Origin: an uncultured Erysipelotrichaceae bacterium
Lineage (GTDB): Bacteria > Bacillota_I > Bacilli_A > RF39 > UBA660
Assembly: GCA_902775285.1 (NCBI GenBank)
Contig: CACYLI010000001.1
Span: 219,697 to 283,696, forward strand
Length of the DNA: 64,000 bases
Reading direction: 5' to 3'
Position 1 is the first letter of the stretch, and every line of letters starts with the position of its first letter. This document shows, in pieces, positions 50,284 to 64,000 of the stretch. A program made the translations under genes and the position numbers. Under the pieces are notes generated by a model that was not told where the DNA came from, searched no databases, and saw only the letters and a list, made by a program, of their open reading frames with translations.

Positions 50284-51531
50284 ATGAAAAACGATCCAAT
50301 ATTAGAATATATAGAAAATTCTTTTAAAGATGGTAGTTTAAAAGAACAAATTAAAAATTTAAAAAGATTAATTATTTATTTATCAGATGAAGAAAATAAT
50401 AAAGAAATTGATTTAACAGAAGCAGATTTTTTACTTAATCATAGTGATAAACTTAATACTATGATTAAAACTATAATTGAAGCCGGAAACTATTCTAAAT
50501 ATTTAAATGATTTAAATATTTACTCAATTGCTGCTGTTTATGCAGAAAAAAATAAAATTAATTTAAAAATTGATGATGAAACAGATTCAAGAACTAATCA
50601 TTCTGGTTCATTAACAAAAAAAGATGAAGATATTTTAAATTATTATTTTGACGACATTCATAGAATAAAGTTATTAACACCAGATGAAGAAATAGAACTT
50701 GCTAAAAGAGTTGAACTTGGTGATATGGAGGCTAAGAATAAACTTATAACAGCAAACTTAAGATTAGTTTTAACTATAGCAAGAAAATATGAAGATAAAA
50801 ACCTTCCATTTACAGATTTAATTCAAGAAGGAAACATAGGTTTAATAAGAGCTGTTGAAAAATTTGATTATAGAAAAGGATTTAAATTTTCAACATATGC
50901 ATGCTACTGGATTAGACAAGGTATGTCAAGAGCATTAGCAGAAAAATCAAGAATTATTAAATTACCTACTCACTTATTTGAGGATTTAAATAAAATATAT
51001 ACATTTATGGGAAAATATAGACAAGAACATGGATTTGATCCATCAGTAAGTGAAATAGCATCTGAAATTAATATAAGTAAACAAAGAGTTGAAAGAGCTT
51101 TAGCAATTCAAGAACCTAGATCTTTAAATGAATATTGTAAAAATGAAGATACTGATACAGAAATTGGAGATTTAGTTCCAGATGAAACCGATTATGAAGA
51201 AGATATATTAAATAAATTATATAATGAAAATGTTAAAGCATTCTTAGAAAATAATGAAATATTAACAATTAATGAAACAACTGTATTAAAATATAGATAT
51301 GGTTTTGTTAATGGTAAACTTTATACTTTAGAAGAAATAGGAAATATTCTTGGATTAACTAGAGAAAGAGTTAGACAAATAGAAGATAAAGCTTTAAGAA
51401 AATTAAGCAGATCTAAACAAATGCAAGAATTATATCAAGGTAGAATTAATAAAGATATAATCTATGGACAAAAAAATCATTATAGAACATTAAAACAATT
51501 ATATAGACATCAAGATACAATAAAAATGTAG
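50284..51531 (+). CDS. RpoD-like (group 1/2) sigma-70 factor with a non-canonical ~130-aa N-terminal region
   Basis: Region 2 ([32 protein letters not shown]), region 3, and region 4.2 ([27 protein letters not shown]). Confidence 0.85.
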
Positions 51532-51831
51532 AAATACATTTTTATTTTTTTGAATTAATAATTAAAAATTGAAATGTATATAATATAAGACAACTAATGA
51601 AAGAGAAAAATAATATGACAGAAGAATTTTTAAAAAATTACAAGAAGCAAATCAAAAAGCTATAAAAGTTTATAAAAAAGAAAATAATAAGTTTTTAGAA
51701 GAATGCAAAAAAATTAAAAGGAAAGTTTTATCATAAACAAAAAGAACTTATTGTATTATAATAGTCCTTTTGTTTTAAAGAATAAATTATAATTAATATT
51801 TATTCTTTTTGTTTGATTAACTAAATAAAAA

Positions 51832-51858
51832 TCGAACTATTTCTAGTTCGACTATTTT
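51832..51858 (+). terminator. intrinsic terminator-like hairpin at or near the left boundary of element 1
   Basis: TCGAACTA-TTTC-TAGTTCGA followed by CTATTTTT. Confidence 0.55.
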
Positions 51859-52011
51859 TACAAATGGAGCGATAACTTTACTTATATTCGAAAAATTATA
51901 CTCCCAAAGTTGTTTGATTAAATCAACTAAATAAATTATATCAGTTTTTAAAATTATTACAATACTTTTAGGATAAAATCACTTGTTGCTATTTAAAAAA
52001 ATGTCAAAATA

Positions 52012-52067
52012 TGATATTATTATGGTAGATTTGTATCATTAATTATGATACTTTTTTTCTTGGGAGG
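52012..52067 (+). promoter_or_regulatory. promoter, 5'-terminal hairpin/U7 leader and RBS of NTase operon 1
   Basis: Extended -10 TGATATTAT (52012-52020). TAGATTT (52026-32). GTATCAT-TAATT-ATGATAC (52033-51). T7 (52052-58). GGGAGG (52062-67). Confidence 0.55.
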
Positions 52068-52075
52068 AATTATAT

Positions 52076-52864
52076 ATGTCAGTAAATTCATATTTAGAAA
52101 ATTTAGCGGGGAATTTAATACTATCAAATTCGGAAAAAGATAGTATAAAAACATCAATAGATACATTAGAGTATAGATTAAATTCATATTTTGGTGACGA
52201 TATTGAGGAACAGTTTGAATTTGGATCTTATCCTAGAGTCACTATATTGCCTAGAAAAGTTGATGATGATTCGGATGTAGATTATATGGTTGTATTTGAT
52301 AATTCTAATAATTATAAACCTCAAACTTTTTTAGATAGATTAAGAAAGTTTGCAGAAGCAAAGTATTCTACATCAGAAATTTATCAATCATCACCTACAA
52401 TGGTATTAGAATTAAATCACATTAAATTTGAACTTGTTCCTGCATATAAGTCTTACTCTGGAACATATTATATTTCCAATGGCAATGGTGGTTGGATGGC
52501 AACATATCCAAATGACTTCAATTCACAACTTACAAAAGCAAATAACAATAATTCATATAAAATAAAGCCAATTGTAAGACTTATTAAAGAATGGAATGTA
52601 AAAGTAAATTATCATGATTTAACTTCTTATAAGATAGAAGAAAGAATTGCATATAATATGGATTATTCATATGTTTACTGTACAAGTTATACAGATTATG
52701 TAAAAGAAGCTTTTTATCAATTAAAAAATATTACTTACGATAGTAGCATTAAAAGTAGAATTGATACTGCATTAGAAAGAATAGATAAAGCACTAAAATA
52801 TGAAAATGATAATATGCCTTATTCAGCATTAGGAGAAATTAAAAAGGTTTTCCCAGAGGTATAA
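52076..52864 (+). CDS. minimal SMODS/CD-NTase-type nucleotidyltransferase
   Basis: Pol-beta NTase signature FGSYPRVT...DSDVDYMVVF...IKFELVPAY. 262 aa. Followed directly by a TM effector-like gene. Confidence 0.7.
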   Translation: MSVNSYLENLAGNLILSNSEKDSIKTSIDTLEYRLNSYFGDDIEEQFEFGSYPRVTILPRKVDDDSDVDYMVVFDNSNNYKPQTFLDRLRKFAEAKYSTSEIYQSSPTMVLELNHIKFELVPAYKSYSGTYYISNGNGGWMATYPNDFNSQLTKANNNNSYKIKPIVRLIKEWNVKVNYHDLTSYKIEERIAYNMDYSYVYCTSYTDYVKEAFYQLKNITYDSSIKSRIDTALERIDKALKYENDNMPYSALGEIKKVFPEV

Positions 52865-52865
52865 A

Positions 52866-53642
52866 ATGAGTGATGATAGAATAGATGAAATTCAAGAACT
52901 TTATGATAGGTGCAATAAAATTGCAAAGTATGCTAATTGGTTATTTTTAATTAATATTGCTGTTTCGTTTATATTATTATTTAATTTTAAATATAGGGAT
53001 ATATTTGTTATTATAAGTCTATTACTAACTATTGTATATGTTATATTGGTAAACATAAATGAAATGTATTTTAGTAATCTTGCAGAAAACGAAAGAAGAA
53101 AGTCTCTTTTAAAAGAATCGTTTGATGTTAACACTACCTTGAGAGATACAAATAAGTATTATAATAATGAAGCACAACCTTCTATTGAAAAACTAGGACT
53201 AAATTGTTATGAAAGTGCCTTTTTTACAAAAAAAGTAGTTGATAAAATGCTTCCGATAAATATTATTAAAGTTAGTATACTTATTATAATATATATAATT
53301 TTAATGATAAAATTAGATAATATGGATTTATTATTAGTAATTACACAAACATTATTTTCTGCCGAAATTATATTTTCTTTTATAAAATTATGTTATTATA
53401 AATTTCAATTAGATAAAGTTTGTAAAGAATTTCAAAACATATTTTTGATAATTGGTTTAAAAAATAAAGATGCGAATGTATTAATATTAGATGCTACTAT
53501 GGATTATGAATGCTTAAAAAGTTATTGTAAGATTTTAACATCTAGCAAGATTTTCCTTAAAAACAATGATCAATGGTCAAAAGAATGGCAAAGACTGTTA
53601 AATAAAATTAAAAAGAAAAAGGAGAAGGATAGCAATGAATAA
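52866..53642 (+). CDS. four-TM (2+2) membrane protein, S-4TM-like putative effector
   Basis: Starts 1 nt after the NTase stop. Helices WLFLINIAVSFILLFNF, IFVIISLLLTIVYVILVNI, VSILIIIYIILMIKL, LLLVITQTLFSAEIIFSFIKL. Confidence 0.6.
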   Translation: MSDDRIDEIQELYDRCNKIAKYANWLFLINIAVSFILLFNFKYRDIFVIISLLLTIVYVILVNINEMYFSNLAENERRKSLLKESFDVNTTLRDTNKYYNNEAQPSIEKLGLNCYESAFFTKKVVDKMLPINIIKVSILIIIYIILMIKLDNMDLLLVITQTLFSAEIIFSFIKLCYYKFQLDKVCKEFQNIFLIIGLKNKDANVLILDATMDYECLKSYCKILTSSKIFLKNNDQWSKEWQRLLNKIKKKKEKDSNE

Positions 53643-54993
53643 TTATGATGTTTGTATTATAGGTGCTGGTCCATGTGGCTTAACTCTAGCATTAGAATTA
53701 AGTACCAAATATAAAGTATGTATTATTGAAGCGGGACGTGAGTATCAAAAAAGAATATGTCCACTAGATACGAAAGGAATATGTAAAGAAAATTGTAATC
53801 CTTGTAATATTATAACAGGTTTCGGTGGGTGTCAATTTATTGATGGTACAAAGGCATGCTTTTATCCCGCAGGATCTGGCTTATTTAATTTTAATTCTAA
53901 AGAAGAAGTTATATCAAATTATAATTATATAGAAAAATTGTTAGTTAAATATGGTAAACCATTGAGAGAACAATCAAGCGAAGAAGAAATAAACAAAATA
54001 ATAAGTGATTTTAATAAATATAATATTGATGTTAAATATTATAATGCTCAAAAAGTGGATAAAGATGTTATGCAGTCAATTGGAATTAGAATGCGTGAAG
54101 AGTTAATTAAAAATGGTGTTGAATTTTTTTATAATGAATGTGTCTACAACATAGAAAAAAATGATGATTTCACCATTTATTCAACAAGCAAAGTAATCAA
54201 AGCAAAAAAGGTTGCCTTAGCTACAGGCAGATATGGTGGACTATTCTTAAACAAGTTATCAGAAAAATTGAAGATAGAATATGAAAAAAATAATTTTGTA
54301 GGTGAAATAGGTGTAAGAATAGAAATGCCATATAATGTTTTTAATCATGTTGATAATGTCTTTAACGATATAAAATTAAAAAGAAAAATTGATGATTTTA
54401 ATGAGATGAGGTCTTTTTGTCAAAACTATAAAGGTATAGTTAGAAAATGTGTGTTTGATACCGAAAACGCTAAAATGTCTTCATTAGATGGTTGCATATT
54501 AGGTCCAGAAAGAAATAATACACAAAGTATAAATATTGCTATTCATCACAGAAAAAAAGATATAACTGAAATTGAGAAATTTAAGGATATGATTTTACAA
54601 GCAAATAAGGACGGAAAGCCAATCGCTCAAAATATGGTATCATTTCTTAATAATACAGACAATTGTGAGTTTAACGAAAAATATTGTACTATGAAAGATT
54701 ATGTTATAGATAATGCTAATAAGTATTTACCAGAAGAAACATTAAATTATATAAAAGATATGATAGTTGATATTGATAAGGTTTTACCAGGATTTGCTGA
54801 TAGAGACAATATAGTTTATGCTCCATCATTTGAATTAGGCGGAGATAAATACAAACTTTCAAAAGGGTTTGAAACAAATATTGAAGGATTATATATTGGC
54901 GGAGATGCTTGTGGATTCTTTAGAGGATTAATGCAAGCGATGATATCAGGTAAAATAATTAGTGAAGATATAATAAAAAAAATGGAGGTATAG
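53635..54993 (+). CDS. FAD-dependent oxidoreductase (COG2509-like)
   Basis: YDVCIIGAGPCGLTLALEL dinucleotide fold, Cys cluster CPLDTKGICKENCNPC, and C-terminal GLYIGGDACGFFRGLMQAMISG. 8-nt overlap with the upstream gene. Confidence 0.8.
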   Translation: MNNYDVCIIGAGPCGLTLALELSTKYKVCIIEAGREYQKRICPLDTKGICKENCNPCNIITGFGGCQFIDGTKACFYPAGSGLFNFNSKEEVISNYNYIEKLLVKYGKPLREQSSEEEINKIISDFNKYNIDVKYYNAQKVDKDVMQSIGIRMREELIKNGVEFFYNECVYNIEKNDDFTIYSTSKVIKAKKVALATGRYGGLFLNKLSEKLKIEYEKNNFVGEIGVRIEMPYNVFNHVDNVFNDIKLKRKIDDFNEMRSFCQNYKGIVRKCVFDTENAKMSSLDGCILGPERNNTQSINIAIHHRKKDITEIEKFKDMILQANKDGKPIAQNMVSFLNNTDNCEFNEKYCTMKDYVIDNANKYLPEETLNYIKDMIVDIDKVLPGFADRDNIVYAPSFELGGDKYKLSKGFETNIEGLYIGGDACGFFRGLMQAMISGKIISEDIIKKMEV

Positions 54994-54997
54994 AAAG

Positions 54998-55654
54998 ATG
55001 AATGAAAAAGATTATATTGAGATTAACAAAGCATCATACGATATAGTTGCTGAAGAATATAAAACAAAATATAAAAACAATGATGGTGCTAATAAGTTTT
55101 ATGAGATATTACAGGAATTTGTTTTAAATAAGAAAAATAGTAGCATTTCAAAAATGTTAGAAATTGGACCAGGAGTTGGTACACTTCTAAAAATATTTGA
55201 AGAAAAAGGATTTAGAACAACAGCAGTAGAATTATCAAAAAACATGGCATCTTTAGCTTGTGAAAATTCGAGTAATTCAGTCATTATCAATGGCAATATT
55301 CTTGAAACTGATTTTATGCCTAAACAATTTGATTTTATTTTAGCAATGGCTGTTATTCATAATTTTCCAGAAGAAGATTTAATAAAATTACTAGATAAAA
55401 TTAAAATATGGTTAAAAGATGACGGATATTTTATTTTAGATACTACTAATAATAAAGTTACCGAAACTGGATTTTTTGAAAAAGAAGATTACAATAATAA
55501 TGTAGTACGTTATAGAAGAAAATGGAAAAAGGAAGATTTAGAAACTTTTATGGAAAAACAAGGATTTTATATTCAAGATAGTGTTGTTTATAAAGATTCT
55601 ACCTCTAGTAAAGAATGGCTTATATATAGTTTTAAAGTTGAAAAAAGTGCGTAA
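54998..55654 (+). CDS. class I SAM-dependent methyltransferase
   Basis: MLEIGPGVGTL (motif I), FDFILAMAVIHNF. Starts 4 nt after the FAD gene stop. Confidence 0.8.
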   Translation: MNEKDYIEINKASYDIVAEEYKTKYKNNDGANKFYEILQEFVLNKKNSSISKMLEIGPGVGTLLKIFEEKGFRTTAVELSKNMASLACENSSNSVIINGNILETDFMPKQFDFILAMAVIHNFPEEDLIKLLDKIKIWLKDDGYFILDTTNNKVTETGFFEKEDYNNNVVRYRRKWKKEDLETFMEKQGFYIQDSVVYKDSTSSKEWLIYSFKVEKSA

Positions 55655-55674
55655 TATTTTACACACTTTTCATT

Positions 55675-56985
55675 TTATTCTAAAGTCTTAGAATTGTCTT
55701 TTTCTTTTTGAATATCTTTATCAAAATTATTAAGATTATTTTGTATGCCTTCGGCTCTTTTAGTTATTTCTTTACAATACTTATCATACTTATAGAGTAC
55801 TTTAATTTTAGGTTGTATATCATTTATTTCAGCAAGTATTTCATTTTGTTTATCTTCAATTTTTGCTCTGTGGTATCTTTTCCAGAGATTTTCTCTTTTT
55901 CCTTTTAATTCACTTAATTCATTAGAGTTATTTTTAGCAAAATTTTCCAAATCTTCTTTTGTAACGATATTTTTCTCATGCATAAATCTAACTTGTTGTG
56001 AAATTTGTTCTAATTTATAAACTTCTTTTCTAATAGAGTATGGAAGATATTGTTTTGGATGTTTCTTTGGAAAGACTCCTAGTAGATAACAATAGTATAA
56101 ATATAATCCATATATTCCTTTATGGGTTTTATTAGTTTTAGAATATTCTTCAAAGATAGATTTTTGTGGCATAGGTCTAAATACTATTTGTCTTGATAAA
56201 TATAATCGTTGGTTTAGTCTTTCTTTTGAATATTCTTCACCAAATACATTTTCTATTCTAACTTTATCTTCACCATCTCTATAAATAGTTATTACACCAT
56301 TACGAGAATAAACTTTATAACCTAGTGACCTCATTCTCTCAAATAATTGTTTTAAAGTAACTGAATAACTAATAACACTATCTAAATCTTCTTTAAGAGT
56401 TTTGTAATATTCATCATTTGAAATGCTTTTAGTATAAGTCCTTTTATAAAACTTATCTTCATCTAAAACAGATAGTCCATATTCAGAACATAGTGAATCA
56501 GAAATATGTCTTATCTTTGATATATTGGTTAGGTTGTTATTATATTTCTTACCAGTTTTAAATGATACAGAATTGATAATGAAATGGTTGTGTATGTGGT
56601 TAGTATTTTGATGTGTAGCAACAACCACTTCATAATCTTTAAACATTTCTTCAACAAACTTAACTCCAATCTCATGAGCAATGTCAGGAGTAACTTCTCC
56701 TTTTTTAAATGACTGATAACCATGATAAGCGAGAACTCCATCTTTTTTTCTAAATCTTTCTTTGGTGAACTCCATATCATCACAAGGATTATCTTCATCA
56801 CAATTCAAGCAACTGACATAACAAACTTTTTCTTCTTTAAAATTATAATCTTTAATAGGTTCTTCTAAATAACTATATGATTCTCTATTACCATAATCTT
56901 TATTAAGAGTTTTCTCAGGATTGATGATATAATTTATAGACTGCTTTAAATTATTCTTAATACTCCAAATTGATGTTGTTGCCAT
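55675..56985 (-). CDS. relaxase/mobilisation nuclease (MobA/VirD2-type)
   Basis: MATTSIWSIKNNLKQSINYIINPEKT N-terminus and the His-cluster ATHQNTNHIHNHFIINSV. Confidence 0.85.
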   Translation of the reverse strand: MATTSIWSIKNNLKQSINYIINPEKTLNKDYGNRESYSYLEEPIKDYNFKEEKVCYVSCLNCDEDNPCDDMEFTKERFRKKDGVLAYHGYQSFKKGEVTPDIAHEIGVKFVEEMFKDYEVVVATHQNTNHIHNHFIINSVSFKTGKKYNNNLTNISKIRHISDSLCSEYGLSVLDEDKFYKRTYTKSISNDEYYKTLKEDLDSVISYSVTLKQLFERMRSLGYKVYSRNGVITIYRDGEDKVRIENVFGEEYSKERLNQRLYLSRQIVFRPMPQKSIFEEYSKTNKTHKGIYGLYLYYCYLLGVFPKKHPKQYLPYSIRKEVYKLEQISQQVRFMHEKNIVTKEDLENFAKNNSNELSELKGKRENLWKRYHRAKIEDKQNEILAEINDIQPKIKVLYKYDKYCKEITKRAEGIQNNLNNFDKDIQKEKDNSKTLE

Positions 56986-57008
56986 TATAGGTTTATTCTT
57001 CCTTTTTG

Positions 57009-57040
57009 GGTGGTGGGAGTAATACCACCTTGCTTGCTTA
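57009..57040 (+). promoter_or_regulatory. candidate oriT core of element 1
   Basis: GGTGG...CCACC hairpin with GGGAGTAA in the loop, followed by TGCTTGCTTA. Same motif and spacing recur at 63394-63430. Confidence 0.4.
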
Positions 57041-57048
57041 TGACAACA

Positions 57049-57402
57049 TTAGACATAAATTAACTCCTTTAGAATAATTTCTTCAGCAGTATTTTTATAA
57101 TTATTCATCAATTTTACCCATTCAAGTTGATTATTTTCTTTACTTTTTTCGGATAGTTTTTCATCATTTTTAATATAATTATCCATTAAAGTTTTTAATC
57201 TTTCTTCACATTCTTTACTGGCTGAAAGAAGATGATTTGTTAGTTCATTCTTCATTAAAAGTGCTTGATATAATCCTTTTTTGTGTTCCTTAATATAATA
57301 TAATCGCAAGTAACCATACTTATTTACTTCTCCATAATTTTGATTTTCTATTACTAAATTAGGTAATAAATAGTCTCCAACTTTTCTATAATCGATATTC
57401 AT
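57049..57402 (-). CDS. tnpV: TnpV family transposon protein
   Basis: MNIDYRKVGDYLLPNL...NKYGYLRL...QLEWVKLMNNYKNTAEEIILKELIY matches the TnpV pattern of Tn4451-type elements. Confidence 0.8.
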   Translation of the reverse strand: MNIDYRKVGDYLLPNLVIENQNYGEVNKYGYLRLYYIKEHKKGLYQALLMKNELTNHLLSASKECEERLKTLMDNYIKNDEKLSEKSKENNQLEWVKLMNNYKNTAEEIILKELIYV

Positions 57403-57420
57403 AATTTAATCAAATCCTTT

Positions 57421-59262
<1,842 letters not shown>

Positions 59263-59288
59263 TTAGTAATGAAAGGCACCAAAGTAAA

Positions 59289-59314
59289 AAGGTGTCACAT
59301 AACAAGGACACCTT
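59289..59314 (-). terminator. hairpin terminator upstream of the recombinase gene
   Basis: AAGGTGTC-N10-GACACCTT followed on the minus strand by TTTTT. Confidence 0.5.
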
Positions 59315-59382
59315 TGAATAATTGATTATTTTATACGACAAAAACAACCAATATTGTGGGAGTATATAAACTCACCAATTCA

Positions 59383-59655
59383 TTAATGCCTTGCTATGTA
59401 CTCTGATAATTCAGACAATGGGATTTTCTTCTTTAAATTCCCTATATAAAAATGTTTCTGTTCATTGAAGAATAGGTATAACTTATCTCCAATAATTACT
59501 TTATGTGGTTCTACATACGCTAAATTGGTATGTTCCACAATCCTTAAGTATCCTTCAATTATTTGATAGGACTTCTTATTAAATTTGCAAGACCAATTAA
59601 TTTTGGCTTTGAGTTCATCACTCATATTGATTTTCTTTTTTACGATATTAATCAT
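59383..59655 (-). CDS. hypothetical 90-aa protein at the right end of element 1
   Basis: ORF in the track with no recognisable motif. Codirectional with the recombinase. Confidence 0.4.
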   Translation of the reverse strand: MINIVKKKINMSDELKAKINWSCKFNKKSYQIIEGYLRIVEHTNLAYVEPHKVIIGDKLYLFFNEQKHFYIGNLKKKIPLSELSEYIARH

Positions 59656-59836
59656 ACCACATCACACCCTTTCTTTGCAATAGCAACAAAAAAATCAACT
59701 TGCGTTGATTTAATCATTAACATCGCTTGGTGCGACGATTTTATCTTTTGGAGCGATTAAGCAACAGCTTACGAACTAATAAGTTCTCTTTCTAAATAAA
59801 TTATATATTAATTCTTTTTAAATTTCAATGGGAGTA

Positions 59837-59913
59837 TGGAAAAAAATACCTAGATATAGTATAATTAAACTAGATTTCGTATCGTTAAATTACGATACTT
59901 TTTTTGTGGGAGG
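59837..59913 (+). promoter_or_regulatory. promoter, 5'-terminal hairpin/U7 leader and RBS of NTase operon 2
   Basis: TGGAAA-N17-TATAAT (59837-59865). TAGATTT (59871-77). GTATCGT-TAAATT-ACGATAC (59879-98). T7 (59899-905). GGGAGG (59908-913). Confidence 0.55.
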
Positions 59914-59918
59914 TTTAA

Positions 59919-60812
59919 ATGAGATATACTGAAAGTCAATTAGAAGGTTTTACTAAGCCAATTAGTGATACTGAAAATCAAAGATGTGAAAATATGATAA
60001 AAATGGTAAAGGAGGCTATCCAAGACTATTATATTGAAACTAGAGATAATAAAATGAATTTAAGTGATTATGAAATATTTTTACAAGGTTCTTATGCAAA
60101 CAATACTAATGTTAAGCAAAATAGCGATGTTGATATTTGTGTTATGTATAAAAATGTATTTCATTATAGTATGCCTGAAGGATATTCTTTAAATGGCTCA
60201 TACACAGATTCTTCATTAGATTATTTTGAATTAAGAAATACCATAAAAAGAGCATTAATTAAGAAATTTGGCTCTGATAGAATAATAGATAAAAATAAAG
60301 CTATAAGGATATTATCAAACTCTTACACGACAGATGCAGATGTTGTAGTTGCATTTCAATATAGAAAATATATCAATTCCACAAATTTTCAAGAAGGTAT
60401 TTATTATAAAGCATTAGATAAGTCCATAGTTATTAATTATCCTAAAATACATATTAAAAATGGAAATGAAAAAAATGTTGCTAGTAATTATATGTATAAA
60501 AAAATGGTAAGAATTTTCAAAAAAATAATGTATGATATGCAAGATGACAAAATTTATGGAAGTAAAGATGTAAAAGGATTTGTTTTAGAATGTATGATTT
60601 ATAATTTTCCTAATGATGAGATGTTTAAACATATAGAAACTAAATATACAGATAATTTACAAAAAATGATGAATACATTTATTAATGAATCTATGAATTT
60701 GTGGAAAGAAGTAAATGAAATAAAATGGTTATTTGGCATTGAAGAAGGAAAAAAAGAAAGTGATTATAAGGATTATATAAAAGCTATGAAGGAGTATGTA
60801 AATGGAAACTAA
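59919..60812 (+). CDS. cdnX: CD-NTase (cGAS/DncV-like nucleotidyltransferase)
   Basis: FLQGSYANNTNVKQNSDVDICVMY and TTDADVVVAF catalytic acidic residues. 297 aa. Overlaps the downstream effector gene. Confidence 0.8.
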   Translation: MRYTESQLEGFTKPISDTENQRCENMIKMVKEAIQDYYIETRDNKMNLSDYEIFLQGSYANNTNVKQNSDVDICVMYKNVFHYSMPEGYSLNGSYTDSSLDYFELRNTIKRALIKKFGSDRIIDKNKAIRILSNSYTTDADVVVAFQYRKYINSTNFQEGIYYKALDKSIVINYPKIHIKNGNEKNVASNYMYKKMVRIFKKIMYDMQDDKIYGSKDVKGFVLECMIYNFPNDEMFKHIETKYTDNLQKMMNTFINESMNLWKEVNEIKWLFGIEEGKKESDYKDYIKAMKEYVNGN

Positions 60813-61407
60813 AAAAATTATAATAATATTGCCAATTATAAATTATATTATATTTTTTTCTTTAATATCTAAAATTATTAATCTGTCGTGGTATGATTCA
60901 CTTGGATATGCTATAACTGCAACATTACTTGAAATATTTATATTCAAAAAATGGTTATGGAAAATACCAATATTACAAAAAATCACTAAAATTAACAATA
61001 TACAGGGAATATGGACAGGAAAAATTGTATCTAATTACGATGATAAAGAGCACATAATAGAGGAAGTTATTATTAAGCAAAGTTTTAATAAATATAAAGT
61101 AGTTCTAAGCACAAAAGAATCAAGAAGTTATAGTGGTATTAACGAAATAAGTATTAATGAGTTTGATAGAATGGAATTACAGTATATGTATAAAAATGAA
61201 GCTCCAGTAAATTTAAGAAAAAAAAATCCTATGCATTTTGGTGTTGCAAATTTAGAGTATAAAGATAATAAATTAACTGGGACTTATTGGACTGATCGAG
61301 AAATTAATGGTGGAAAAAATACAAGAGGAACAATGGAATTACAAAGAACTAACAAAAATGGACATTTTGATTTAATAAGTATATTAGATGTTTTTGATGT
61401 TTTTTAG
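60802..61407 (+). CDS. cap15: Cap15-like (S-2TM-beta) CBASS effector
   Basis: Two N-terminal TM helices, then a beta-rich ~130-aa domain (GIWTGKIVSNY...YKVVLSTKESRSYS...LQYMYKNE...HFGVANLEY...LTGTYWTDRE...TRGTMELQR). 11-nt overlap with the CD-NTase gene. Confidence 0.7.
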   Translation: METKKIIIILPIINYIIFFSLISKIINLSWYDSLGYAITATLLEIFIFKKWLWKIPILQKITKINNIQGIWTGKIVSNYDDKEHIIEEVIIKQSFNKYKVVLSTKESRSYSGINEISINEFDRMELQYMYKNEAPVNLRKKNPMHFGVANLEYKDNKLTGTYWTDREINGGKNTRGTMELQRTNKNGHFDLISILDVFDVF

Positions 61408-61426
61408 AAAAAATTATTAAAAATAT

Positions 61427-61435
61427 GTTATAATA
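61427..61435 (+). promoter_or_regulatory. extended -10 promoter element for the repeat-protein gene
   Basis: TGTTATAAT about 25 nt upstream of the RBS AAGGGAGG. Confidence 0.4.
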
Positions 61436-61459
61436 TTTAGCACAAAGGGAGGATTTGGA

Positions 61460-63016
61460 ATGAAAAGCGATGAATTAAAGAAATTAATTAGTCAAATAAG
61501 AAAGTATAATTTGGAAAAAGCATTTGATACACCAAAAGATTTTGATAAGTGGCTAAAGGGCTTAAGTGCAAAACAAATTAAAAATTTTAATAGTTTAACA
61601 GTAGAACCAAGTGAAATACAATTTCCTGTATGTTTTTTAATTGATGAAGATTTATTAAATTGTGATGATTATAATAATAGAATTATTGCAATGTCAAAAA
61701 TTAGAAATGCTGATGGATGGTATCACCTATTTGATAGATTATGCTCACCTAATTTTTTGAATAGTAAAAATTATTATGAAGACATGGAAATGATAAGTAA
61801 GGCGCCTAGTGCACAATATCCTTTATGGATAATTAATGAAGATGCTTTTATAAATAGCCCATATCATAAAGAAGATTTAAAACTTATAATAGAAGCAAAA
61901 GATACGCCAAAAGAAAATGGTAATGAATTAGACTGGCTTGTAGCAGAAGCTTTAACTGTAGTTGCTGGTAATGCTAATTCTATTAATAGTCCATATCATC
62001 AAAAGGATATGCAGTTAATAGCACATGCTGGTAGTGAATGCTTGCAAATGAGCCATTCTTATCCAGAAAGTAGTTTAAATAATCTTGCAACAAATAGTGT
62101 TTCATTAAAAGATAAATATCATCTAGAAAATATGCAAATACTAGCACAAAATCCAGCAGCAGGAGAATATCTATATGAGTTGATGACTAATCCTGAAATT
62201 ATTAAGGGAAGATATTATAGAAACGAAGTAAATGCTTTGGCTACTTCAAAAAGTCCGATTACCGCATTAGCAATGTATTTTTATATTTTAAATCCAGATG
62301 AATTTGAGTCAAGAAGAAAATCAAGTGATTTACTATGGAATTTAGGATGTTGGGACTATAATGATGTCTTAGAATGTAGACGAAGAAATAGTATTAAAGG
62401 TAGCACCAATCCAAATTATATAAAGTATTTAGAATCATTAAATCAAATTGATGATAAATGTGTATTATTTATTGAATCACTTTTATCAAATAAAACTTTC
62501 GCTAGTAGTCAATATTGTGACTATGATCTAAATTTATTACTTTCTACACAAGATAAAAATATTTTTATAGATTTATATAGGGTTATGTCTAATGAAATAT
62601 CGTTAAATGGAAGTCATCATATTAAAGACTTAGATATTATAAGTAAAGTAAGTAATAAAGAATTAAGGCAGTTGTTAATAGAGAAAGCAATAGATGAGGA
62701 TAGTATAGATAGTTGCTATCACGATTATGATATGGAATATATATCTAAATTAGATTTGGATAACATTGATAAAGAAACTTTTAAATTAATATATCATTAT
62801 CTTTTTATTCCTAATAAAATTAATCACCCTAATCATATTGAAAGACTAGAAAAACTATCAAGAGGTGAAAGTATACAAAGTGAAGATACTATAATAAGTC
62901 ACCTAGATTACTTAGAAAATAATCCAGATAATGTTATAGTTCCAGATAAAGTAGTTCCAAATGAAGAAAAACCAAAAGTTTTATCTAGAATTAGACAAAT
63001 ATTTAGGAAAAGATAA
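61460..63016 (+). CDS. uncharacterised helical repeat protein (~10 copies of a ~40-aa NSPYH-type repeat)
   Basis: Repeats INSPYHKEDLKLIIEA, INSPYHQKDMQLIAHA, LKDKYHLENMQILAQN, LNGSHHIKDLDIISKV, IDSCYHDYDMEYISKL, INHPNHIERLEKLSRG and others. Confidence 0.6.
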   Translation: MKSDELKKLISQIRKYNLEKAFDTPKDFDKWLKGLSAKQIKNFNSLTVEPSEIQFPVCFLIDEDLLNCDDYNNRIIAMSKIRNADGWYHLFDRLCSPNFLNSKNYYEDMEMISKAPSAQYPLWIINEDAFINSPYHKEDLKLIIEAKDTPKENGNELDWLVAEALTVVAGNANSINSPYHQKDMQLIAHAGSECLQMSHSYPESSLNNLATNSVSLKDKYHLENMQILAQNPAAGEYLYELMTNPEIIKGRYYRNEVNALATSKSPITALAMYFYILNPDEFESRRKSSDLLWNLGCWDYNDVLECRRRNSIKGSTNPNYIKYLESLNQIDDKCVLFIESLLSNKTFASSQYCDYDLNLLLSTQDKNIFIDLYRVMSNEISLNGSHHIKDLDIISKVSNKELRQLLIEKAIDEDSIDSCYHDYDMEYISKLDLDNIDKETFKLIYHYLFIPNKINHPNHIERLEKLSRGESIQSEDTIISHLDYLENNPDNVIVPDKVVPNEEKPKVLSRIRQIFRKR

Positions 63017-63029
63017 GTTAAAAGCAATG

Positions 63030-63341
63030 TCATTTGGCATTGCTTTTGTCATCTATTAGTTTATTCAAATTATTGATTATTTTATCTAAAACAACAATTA
63101 TTTTTTCATATCGAAGTCTGTGCATATAATTATTTACCTCATTTAAATCTTTAATAGATGATTTAACAATATTGTTTATAGTATCAATATCTATCTTTGA
63201 TTTAGTTTCATAAGTGTAATCTTTGATTAGTTTTCTAATAAATTCAGATTGTGTTAGTCTAACCTTATTAGTTTTTTCTATTAGTAAATCGTGTTCTCTT
63301 TCGTTCAGAAAAACATTTAGTTTTATATTTCTATTTCTCAT
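63030..63341 (-). CDS. MobC-like ribbon-helix-helix relaxosome accessory protein
   Basis: KLNVFLNEREHDLLIEKTNKVRLTQSEFIRKLI is the RHH/MobC pattern. Located next to an oriT-like region. Confidence 0.6.
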   Translation of the reverse strand: MRNRNIKLNVFLNEREHDLLIEKTNKVRLTQSEFIRKLIKDYTYETKSKIDIDTINNIVKSSIKDLNEVNNYMHRLRYEKIIVVLDKIINNLNKLIDDKSNAK

Positions 63342-63370
63342 AATATTTCATTCCTTTCTTTGTTTTGGGC

Positions 63371-63477
63371 TTGGGATATCCCAAAATTGAATTTGCAAAA
63401 TTGCGGGAGTAAGTTTGCAGTGCTGGCTAATACCAAAAATTTTAAATGTACTCACATATGGAACTTGTGTACTCACA
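63371..63477. promoter_or_regulatory. oriT/operator-like region of element 2
   Basis: 14-bp perfect palindrome TTGGGATATCCCAA (63371-84). TGCAAA...TTTGCA hairpin with GGGAGTAA in the loop plus TGCTGGCTAA (63394-430). Two TGTACTCACA direct repeats (63447-56 and 63468-77). Confidence 0.45.
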
Positions 63478-63482
63478 CAAAA

Positions 63483-63839
63483 TTATTGATAAATTATCTC
63501 ATTTTTTATGATTTCTTCAGCACAATTTTTATAATTATTCATTAATTTTACCCACTCAATTTGATTAATATTTTTATTTTTTTCAGATAGTCTTTTATCA
63601 TTTTTTATATAATTATTCATTAATATTTTTAATCTATTTTCACATTCATTACTAACTGAAAAAAGATGTTTAGTTAATTCATTTTTAATTAGTAATGTTT
63701 GATAAAATCCTTTCTTATATTTCTTAATATAATCTAATCTTAGATAACCATATTTGTTTATTCTACCATTATTTTTATTCTCATTTATTATTAAATTTGG
63801 TAATAAATAACCATTAATTTTTAAATATTTTATATTCAT
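63483..63839 (-). CDS. tnpV: TnpV family transposon protein (second copy)
   Basis: Roughly two-thirds identical by eye to the 57049-57402 product (YLLPNL, NKYGYLRL, EWVKLMNNYKN, AEEII). Confidence 0.8.
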   Translation of the reverse strand: MNIKYLKINGYLLPNLIINENKNNGRINKYGYLRLDYIKKYKKGFYQTLLIKNELTKHLFSVSNECENRLKILMNNYIKNDKRLSEKNKNINQIEWVKLMNNYKNCAEEIIKNEIIYQ

Positions 63840-63859
63840 AATTTAAATCATTCCTTTCA

Positions 63860-64000
63860 TTTTTCATAATTAATTACTCTAGTTTTTGGTATTAAAAGTA
63901 GTCTATCAGTAATATTTTCTCCGTCATAATATGGACATTCTATTACACCATCAAAGTAAAAATGCTCTTGAATAAGTTCAGTATAAAAGTTGATTTCTTT
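63860..64000 (-). CDS. C-terminal fragment of an upstream gene, probably a second large serine recombinase (5' part outside the window)
   Basis: My own translation gives ...KEINFYTELIQEHFYFDGVIECPYYDGENITDRLLLIPKTRVINYEK, ending in TGA at 63860-62. That is 20 nt before tnpV, mirroring the recombinase-tnpV junction of element 1 (18 nt). Confidence 0.35.

Follow-up and report, generated by a model that had tools for sequence, protein, structure and literature searches.

Several kinds of mobile element that are driven by large serine recombinases (LSRs) or attached at tRNA genes have been described. Tn4451 and Tn4453 are clostridial and encode the LSR TnpX together with TnpV and TnpZ; Tn4451 is an LSR-driven mobilisable element of low target specificity, which recombines at 2-bp identities and does not need a directionality factor (PMC5704250). 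In the same 2017 review of integrative and mobilisable elements (IMEs), tRNA 3' ends are given as the targets of tyrosine-integrase IMEs, and serine-recombinase IMEs are described as integrating inside genes and disrupting them (PMC5704250). Staphylococcal cassette chromosome (SCC) elements form tandem stacks at rlmH and include defence systems in their cargo (PMC11470126), and the ssrA islands of Dehalococcoides have been proposed to be mobilisable, not conjugative (PMC3146451). In this study, we analysed a stretch of 64,000 nucleotides (the window) from an uncultured Erysipelotrichaceae bacterium (assembly GCA_902775285.1, contig CACYLI010000001.1, positions 219,697 to 283,696), the end of which had been predicted from the sequence alone to hold two diverged Tn4451-like mobilisable elements in tandem (here E1 and E2), each with a different module resembling a cyclic-oligonucleotide-based anti-phage signalling system (CBASS). 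The best overall explanation of the locus, to which we give a probability of about 80%, is that these are tRNA-Gly-specific, LSR-driven integrative (mobilisable) elements, stacked at a tRNA 3' end and carrying defence-like cargo.

The region has a G+C content of about 25%, and its two units lie back to back in the same layout, with the cargo on the plus strand and the mobilisation (Mob), TnpV and LSR genes on the minus strand (Table 1). E1 is 7,884 bp and E2 about 6.4 kb long. The two TnpV proteins, judged by eye to be about two-thirds identical, agree at 83 of 117 positions (71%), and the tnpV genes and LSR-tnpV junctions, which had been called homologous, are direct repeats of 73-80% identity; a leader before the cyclase gene is also common to both elements (E2 copy 59880-59910). 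Both cargoes start with a cGAS/DncV-like nucleotidyltransferase (CD-NTase) gene and an adjacent effector gene. Profile scans found no Cap2/Cap3, HORMA/TRIP13 or other CBASS genes, and both systems are predicted to be type I CBASS. The open reading frames (ORFs) and domains lie where the original prediction had placed them, and its picture of two diverged tandem elements sharing a TnpV/LSR backbone and differing in their CBASS was borne out. A Mob gene had been assigned to each unit; this holds for E1, which has a relaxase gene, and not for E2, in which no relaxase was found and the sole mobilisation protein is a NikA-like relaxosome accessory protein.

Extension of the contig, which had been advised for finding the other end of E2, reached that end and ran on to the tRNA gene. 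An exact look-up of the E2 TnpV protein returned ten contigs. Among them, L002 matches window 53483-64000 at 100% identity and continues for another 9.7 kb, and L001 is 100% identical to window 59749-64000. Past the window end (L002 1-9683) lie the rest of the E2 recombinase gene, a 97-aa small ORF homologous to the 90-aa small ORF of E1 (sORF1), a copy of the core described below, a third element (E3) and a tRNA-Gly(GCC) gene, the last about 9.4 kb past the window end. The partial ORF at the edge of the window, which had been expected to be a recombinase, is the C-terminus of a 596-aa LSR (LSR2) and can be called only by extension (L001, L002). E3 is 7.2 kb long and encodes a small ORF, a 626-aa LSR (LSR3), a Mob_Pre relaxase, a 268-aa protein, an FtsX permease and a helix-turn-helix (HTH)-ABC ATPase; tnpV is absent from it. 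Each element has one full-length LSR in which R16, S18, D21 and Q22 are conserved, and LSR1, the recombinase of E1 with the catalytic motif YxRVST..DQ, is 26% identical to LSR2 and 39% to LSR3. Type IV secretion (mating-pore) genes were absent among the E1, E2 and E3 proteins scanned. Read in tRNA orientation (the minus strand of the window), the order is tRNA-Gly(GCC), E3, E2, E1 and a terminator behind a sigma-70 gene. It is very probable that the window holds the two distal members of a three-element head-to-tail array at the tRNA-Gly(GCC) 3' end, where only two elements had been counted; the sigma factor gene, previously regarded as lying at the insertion target, merely borders the far end of the array.

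A 6-bp core, GCTCCA, is present at every junction and corresponds to tRNA positions 71-76 (71-73 plus the encoded CCA). The junctions of the array read tRNA-Gly ...CACTT-GCTCCA-[E3]...CTATT-GCTCCA-[E2]...TTAATC-GCTCCA-[E1]...GTTATC-GCTCCA-TTTGTAAAAATAGTCGAACTAGAAATAGTTCGA, so each has the form [tRNA 3' end or cargo-side arm]-GCTCCA-[recombinase-side arm or native terminator], and the repeat at both ends of an element is 6-9 bp long, (ATC)GCTCCA. Stacking had been ascribed to recombinases that prefer their own end joint; what the junctions point to instead is site specificity at tRNA-Gly 3' ends. The native terminator lies 300 nt behind the sigma-70 gene, and this flank is the predicted right arm of the original tRNA-Gly attachment site (attB), seen on the other strand. 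The start previously given for the first element, 51831, belongs to this hairpin, 34 nt outside the true end. The tRNA-Gly gene is kept intact, as ARAGORN calls complete genes ending at the core in L001, L002, L006, L012, L014, L016 and 49 further loci. Past the core, each element has a short arm followed by a hairpin and a T-run, which would terminate the transcript of a tRNA gene cut off from its own terminator. In a table of the unique junctions of all fetched loci, at least ten families of cargo-side arm are freely combined with three families of recombinase-side arm and with native flanks, always via GCTCCA.

The symmetry of the sites was also considered. The ends of E2 form an imperfect inverted repeat (GTTCGTAAG...core...CTTACGAAC), and the reconstructed E2 joint, GTTCGTAAGCTGTTGCTTAATC-GCTCCA-TTTGAAGACAACTTACGAAC, has 17 of 24 dyad matches about the CT of GCTCCA, a pattern expected if the crossover dinucleotide lies at the centre of an LSR attP. 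Behind arrays, the native flank often has TCGAAC 13-19 nt past the core; since this is an inverted copy of GTTCGA in the T-loop on the tRNA side, the chromosomal site is also roughly palindromic. The joints predicted for excised elements are ...AAGTAAAGTTATC-GCTCCA-AAAGATAAAATCGTCGC... (E1) and ...GCTGTTGCTTAATC-GCTCCA-TTTGAAGACAACTTACG... (E2), and the predicted restored site is tRNA-Gly(GCC) ...TTCACTT-GCTCCA-TTTGTAAAAATAGTCGAAC....

The wider mobile family that had been proposed was recovered in several ways. E2 recurs with 100% identity across 4.25 kb in L001, L003, L005 and L007, where it immediately follows a tRNA-Gly(UCC) gene behind a Tex gene, and a variant of it occupies the tRNA-Gly(UCC) of another species in L006; it was found in at least four genomic contexts. 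In a sister strain (L008), the flank of which is 99.07% identical to the window over 3442 bp, the E2 cargo-side arm is joined to the sigma flank via one core and E1 is absent. The presence or absence of E1 between strains is a precise polymorphism at the core, and elements in general are gained and lost precisely there. The complete identity of E2 across contexts, together with the variation of E1 between flanks about 1% apart, argues for very recent movement. In Logan contigs assembled from four independent gut metagenome runs, the contig ends all fall within 59727-59758, which fits an assembly-graph branch arising from variable neighbours at the core.

A search for the same backbone with other cargos had been suggested as a check, and a TnpV scan limited to one genome for each species yielded 12 loci in metagenome-assembled genomes (MAGs) of gut and rumen origin. 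The E1 backbone is present in 10 of the 12, with differing cargo and with conserved ends (GCTCCA/AAAGATAAAATCGTCGCACC... and ...TTTTTCGAATATAAGTAAAGTTATC/GCTCCA). Identity to the E1 proteins in these loci is 72-95% for the relaxase and 79-92% for TnpV (wherever these are present), 86-97% for LSR1, and 71-100% for the small ORF in the contigs long enough to include it. An E1-type element stands directly after tRNA-Gly(UCC) in L012 and tRNA-Gly(GCC) in L016, and within arrays in L014, L015 and L016, which have at least 3-4 elements each; L002 has three. A fixed order of families in such arrays was considered and rejected, because E3 precedes E2 and E2 precedes E1 in L051 and L058, but E1 precedes E2 in L014-L016, L019 and L031. 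At least 120 metagenome contigs and 8 IMG/VR contigs (at least 128 public contigs) contain the E1 recombinase-side arm. In 53 of its 123 scorable copies, ARAGORN places directly upstream a complete tRNA with the core as its 3' end, namely tRNA-Gly in 49 (UCC 28, CCC 15, GCC 6) and tRNA-Thr in 4; the remaining 70 show mostly recognisable cargo-side arms of other elements and a few tRNA 3' fragments. The MAGs with related elements are labelled uncultured Bacilli, Clostridia, Clostridiaceae and Erysipelotrichia. To judge by these junctions, the process is one of site-specific integration at tRNA 3' ends followed by accretion, and low-specificity transposition is rejected. Among the contigs with an E1 arm, the tRNA-Gly 3' acceptor strand upstream of the arm in L055 no longer pairs with the 5' strand, and others in the group L055, L148, L151 and L153 have only the tRNA 3' half (T-arm and acceptor) there, so that some element families seem either to bring longer tRNA-like arms with them or to have harmed the tRNA gene.

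In each element the small ORF and LSR gene lie at the tRNA-proximal end, usually with tnpV and a mobilisation gene, and the cargo is read in the opposite direction from the conserved leader at the distal end. From these data we propose that the LSR would exchange strands at a dinucleotide within GCTCCA. Each integration would leave a copy of the core on both sides and provide the tRNA with a new terminator, so that the junctions would stay usable and elements of the same or related families could pile up. E1 may be mobilised via its own relaxase by a conjugative helper, and recombinase-less mini-cassettes with the same arms may be moved in trans. Both of the type I CBASS, which differ from each other, would be expected to protect against phage by abortive infection.

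Several points weigh against this explanation. E2 has no relaxase and would require one in trans, and no origin of transfer (oriT) was identified in the elements. Crossover at the CT of GCTCCA (AG on the plus strand of the window) is inferred from the dyad of the E2 joint; the reconstructed E1 joint has only a weak dyad maximum at the same place and the E3 joint none. The distal E2 junction of L001 (L001:14086-14097) has a duplicated core, GCTCCAGCTCCA, which may have been left by an earlier event or be peculiar to the flank in that genome. No excised circular joint was found for this species in assembled contigs: the candidates in Logan contigs were not trustworthy, with just 20-24 letters matching on one side, searches of IMG/VR for the joints predicted for E1 and E2 gave no match, and the E1-E1 and E2-E2 joints of L015 and L047 sit inside arrays. 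Comparison of strains for empty sites, another suggested check, yielded the absence of E1 in L008 and no tRNA-Gly(GCC)/sigma-flank site free of elements; the contigs retrieved by exact match to the sigma protein or the neighbouring 96-aa protein showed only flank-E1 and flank-E2 junctions, and a metagenome scan with a 30-nt flank/core sequence gave no match. About half of the contigs with an E1 arm lack a small ORF or LSR close downstream, and many of these copies may therefore be decayed. Entry of new elements at the tRNA side and entry at any junction are both compatible with the data, and recombinase activity, transfer and phage defence are predictions.

The unrecovered circular joint and empty site, together with the many related loci that are decayed or lack an LSR, would also be explained if the array were a fossil of past integration, now immobile in this strain and fixed as a chromosomal defence island. 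We regard this as improbable, because the backbone ORFs of E1, E2 and E3 are all full length with intact catalytic motifs, and because the identity of E2 across contexts and the variability of E1 between closely related strains are at odds with immobility.

Less probable still is the explanation originally favoured, that is, Tn4451/Tn4453-type transposons with a TnpX-like, low-specificity recombinase that prefers its own joint, stacked behind the sigma gene. The likenesses are that the elements are 6-8 kb long, that tnpV directly follows a single LSR gene (not in E3), that a mobilisation gene occurs without conjugation pore genes, that cargo is swapped among relatives, and that the crossover identity is very short. 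For comparison we used a Tn4451-like element on the IncHI2 plasmid CP123681.1 (65183-82000; L156/L157), which has TnpV, Mob, TnpW and an LSR with DUF4368. TnpV of E1 is 46% identical to its TnpV, but LSR1 is only 23% identical to its LSR. The reference LSR has DUF4368 (E 4e-24) and a significant Zn_ribbon_recom match, whereas LSR1, LSR2 and LSR3 lack DUF4368, and their zinc-ribbon match is below the Pfam threshold (LSR2, LSR3) or absent (LSR1); the claim of TnpX-type recombinases did not hold. Mob_Pre of E3 has no significant similarity to the reference TnpZ. Pfam scans of sORF1 and of its E2 homologue found no family, hence no TnpW match, and neither TnpW nor TnpY was noted in the elements; the relaxase is of MobA/VirD2 type (E1) or missing (E2), and the conserved small ORF before the LSR gene is a further difference. 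The GA expected at the ends and joint of Tn4451 occurs only on the complementary strand of the core (TGGAGC), and the dyad of the E2 joint is centred on CT/AG. In target choice, the specificity for tRNA 3' ends stands against the low specificity of Tn4451 (PMC5704250): all classified junctions of the E1 arm without an adjoining tRNA have the same 6-bp core, and no E1 or E2 insertion at an unrelated site without GCTCCA was seen in about 150 loci. The cargo here is predicted phage defence, that of Tn4451/Tn4453 chloramphenicol resistance. The elements share TnpV and the general plan with Tn4451 and depart from it in four defining features. The observation behind the original prediction was confirmed and its interpretation partly supported.

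That the units are remnants of prophages or phage satellites with serine integrases is the least probable of all, for although eight copies of the E1 arm are on IMG/VR contigs, LSRs are common as phage integrases and the TP901-1 integrase matches the catalytic domain of LSR1, no capsid, terminase, tail or phage-replication family was found among the E1, E2 and E3 proteins scanned, the backbone has relaxase, NikA-like or Mob_Pre genes, and the elements are just 6-8 kb long.

As tRNA-Gly-specific LSR elements, the units can be set beside three other kinds of island. With SCC/SCCmec (Ccr at rlmH; staphylococci and enterococci) they share LSR cassettes at the 3' end of a conserved gene that stays intact, a short att core at each junction, tandem stacking, recombinase-less cassettes and defence cargo (PMC11470126, PMC6222049). 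They differ in the target (tRNA versus rlmH), in having a single LSR per element, in their TnpV and relaxase genes and in their hosts, which are uncultured low-GC gut Bacillota. The ssrA islands (PMC3146451) are likewise serine-recombinase islands in tandem downstream of a structured RNA gene (tmRNA), with a direct repeat of its 3' end at the boundaries and some islands lacking an integration module. Their repeat, however, is 20 bp long with insertion in the T-loop, as opposed to 6 bp at the acceptor end and CCA, and they have a CcrB-like and small recombinase pair, a six-gene integration module and reductive dehalogenase cargo. Tyrosine-integrase tRNA islands and IMEs also use the tRNA 3' end as attachment site, restore the gene and are known to accrete in tandem, but their recombinase family is unrelated and the stretch of identity, located inside the tRNA, is usually tens of bp long. 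In behaviour the elements are closer to SCC cassettes than to Tn4451, the ssrA islands also being similar. An own recombinase, short direct repeats in attL/attR and variable presence among strains are seen, as in IMEs, and relaxases are present in E1 and E3, with only an accessory protein in E2. The literature searched contains no description of TnpV/LSR elements at tRNA-Gly, and large island databases may contain such elements unnamed. The elements are best described as members of a widespread family in gut Bacillota, which forms arrays of mostly defence-like cassettes at tRNA genes ending in GCTCCA.

Table 1. Features of E1, E2 and their flanks in window coordinates, with a TACTCCC box given in coordinates of contig L002.
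Feature	Position	Strand	Evidence or remark
Terminator hairpin TCGAACTA/TAGTTCGA	51832-51851	+	native flank, far side of array; behind sigma-70 gene (50284-51531)
Core, E1 cargo-side end/native flank	51865-51870	-	TGGAGC on +, GCTCCA in tRNA orientation
E1 cargo-side arm (Pl)	51871-51975	-	~110 bp module, by alignment; conserved in all E1-backbone elements whatever the cargo
TACTCCC box, E1 cargo-side arm	~51899		
E1 cargo leader, hairpin GTATCAT/ATGATAC and T-run	52028-52063	+	directly before cyclase ribosome-binding site
E1 cargo 1, predicted type I CBASS	52076-53642	+	CD-NTase and four-transmembrane (4TM) effector
E1 CD-NTase	52076-52864	+	Pfam SMODS E 7e-44; PADLOC cyclase E 2.5e-94
E1 4TM effector	52866-53642	+	PADLOC E 1e-55
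E1 cargo 2	53635-55654	+	FAD-type oxidoreductase and S-adenosylmethionine (SAM) methyltransferase
E1 FAD-type oxidoreductase	53635-54993	+	start overlaps 4TM effector stop
E1 SAM methyltransferase	54998-55654	+	same direction as E1 CBASS
E1 relaxase, MobA/VirD2-like nuclease domain	55675-56985	-	PF03432 E 1.4e-37
TACTCCC box, between tnpV and relaxase gene of E1	57011-57021	-	
E1 TnpV	57049-57402	-	PF14198 E 1e-30
LSR1, 609 aa	57421-59250	-	Resolvase and Recombinase domains
TACTCCC box, between small ORF and LSR1 gene	59354-59364	-	
sORF1, conserved small ORF, 90 aa	59383-59655	-	upstream of LSR1 gene
E1 recombinase-side arm (Pr)	59694-59748	-	after core: AAAGATAAAATCGTCGCACCAAGCGATG, then terminator hairpin ATCAACGCAAGTTGAT and T-run
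Core, E2-E1 junction	59749-59754	-	TGGAGC on +
E2 cargo-side arm (GATTAAGCAACAGCTTACGAAC...) and leader	59755-59918	-	
E2 cargo 1, predicted type I CBASS	59919-61407	+	CD-NTase and Cap15-type two-transmembrane (2TM) effector
E2 CD-NTase	59919-60812	+	differs from that of E1; PADLOC E 6e-87
E2 Cap15-type 2TM effector	60802-61407	+	E 8e-36; Pfam Cap15_CD_rec
E2 cargo 2, 518-aa repeat-containing protein	61460-63016	+	without family match
E2 NikA-like ribbon-helix-helix protein, 103 aa	63030-63341	-	relaxosome accessory
TACTCCC box, between E2 tnpV and nikA-like gene	63401-63411	-	
E2 TnpV	63483-63839	-	PF14198 E 2e-27
Partial ORF, C-terminal 47 codons of LSR2 (596 aa)	63860-64000	-	by contig extension
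TACTCCC box	L002:13849		

The family had been thought to shuttle CBASS-like modules, which proved too narrow: the E1 backbone has a different cargo in each locus examined, and other copies carry many unrelated, mostly defence-like genes. These include Abi_alpha (PADLOC PDC-S47); an Ltp lipoprotein with a TM2 protein and DUF3800; a radical SAM protein with DUF5680; NUDIX/ASCH/Schlafen-AlbA_2 with an OLD-TOPRIM ATPase; an HD protein; DUF2207 with LemA; HD/AAA with a KAP NTPase (PDC-S49); a fused C5/Eco57I methyltransferase with a 411-aa partner; and an AriA/Old-like ATPase. PADLOC models were matched by 6 of 10 sampled cargo proteins. The swap always lies between the relaxase stop and the conserved distal module of about 110 bp, and the cargo of the family is accordingly mostly defence-like rather than CBASS in particular. 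In L029, a CD-NTase 76% identical to that of E1 and a diverged 4TM protein accompany a backbone LSR that is only 66% identical, and the oxidoreductase/methyltransferase pair of E1 is absent from this related element; the SAM methyltransferase of E1 matches PADLOC mad2 (E 1e-17).

Units without an LSR were also found, with mini-cassettes of 0.95-2.3 kb in L060, L082, L138 and L062. A 950-bp unit with the same arms and one 133-aa ORF recurs in L060, L081, L082, L113 and L145, and a 1.17-kb unit in L138 has the small ORF only. In L062 (1772-8266), a tRNA-Gly gene leads into a row of four cassettes (1.3-2.3 kb each), all delimited by recognisable arms and the core, and the 14.5-kb contig contains no LSR gene; this arrangement recalls an integron cassette array. 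The mini units look like elements that depend on an LSR in trans or have decayed. The idea that the E1 recombinase-side arm copies the native downstream sequence of tRNA-Gly, so that integration would regenerate a true attB, was dropped, because contigs with the arm alone proved to be mostly mini-cassettes or decayed elements ending in another core and unrelated native terminators.

A broader view, which we put forward tentatively, is that a large and hitherto undescribed superfamily of LSR cassettes might dock at the tRNA-Gly genes of many gut Bacillota, integron-like except that the integrases travel with the cassettes. Each unit would bring a replacement tRNA terminator, a cargo leader and two arms around the 6-bp core; autonomous units (small ORF and LSR with or without TnpV and Mob) and recombinase-less mini-cassettes could be arranged in any order to form modular defence islands, and related LSR clades would use tRNA-Thr and tRNA-His. 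The rule of thumb of the 2017 review is corrected in that members of an abundant LSR family insert at the final six bases of tRNA-Gly (and tRNA-Thr) genes without disrupting them. Repeated docking of small cassettes at one tRNA gene offers a testable route for the assembly of defence islands in uncultured gut Bacillota, and the two CBASS of this genome are accessory genes that were acquired recently and independently. New defence genes can be sought with the conserved arms and small ORF/LSR backbone as a marker, several cargo proteins matching nothing known, and LSRs with a short, universal and naturally occurring target could interest genome engineers.

Some further features of the backbone were recorded. 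A homologue of sORF1 precedes the LSR gene in E1, E2, E3 and a tRNA-His element (the four loci compared). The family comprises 547 homologous clusters, all unnamed, and sORF1 has neither a Pfam nor a PADLOC match; its AlphaFold2 model is confident (pLDDT 90) with a predicted alpha/beta fold, for which Foldseek found no match in the PDB (best E 0.75). The tRNA-His element (L005:467-915) has a small ORF 42% identical to sORF1 and an LSR directly after the tRNA gene; in L001 (877-1000) this site is unoccupied, and the same 27-nt terminator hairpin follows the tRNA in L001 and L005.

A TACTCCC box is confined to the non-coding backbone, namely the cargo-side arm, the spacer between small ORF and LSR gene and the spacer between tnpV and the mobilisation gene. 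In 20 kb of L002, all five ACTCCC copies are intergenic (about 0.7 expected per strand) and four of the five have the same orientation, the copy in the small ORF-LSR3 spacer of E3 being on the opposite strand. The box could be an operator or part of an oriT and is a candidate only. A terminator-like hairpin and T-run before the ribosome-binding site of the first cargo gene is common to E1, E2, L012 and L004, the cargo being unrelated, and may be an attenuator or a regulated leader; an Rfam scan of 51000-64000 gave nothing credible. The 518-aa protein after the E2 CBASS, for which no Pfam, PADLOC or PDB sequence match was found, has internal repeats of about 45 aa with the motif ..SPYH..D..LI.. 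and is kept wherever E2 occurs. As for the Tn4451-like reference, segments of this type (TnpV, aac(6')-aph(2''), Mob, TnpW and the DUF4368 recombinase) are present on IncHI2 plasmids of Salmonella, Klebsiella, Enterobacter and Citrobacter, and represent a Gram-positive type element in enterobacterial plasmids.

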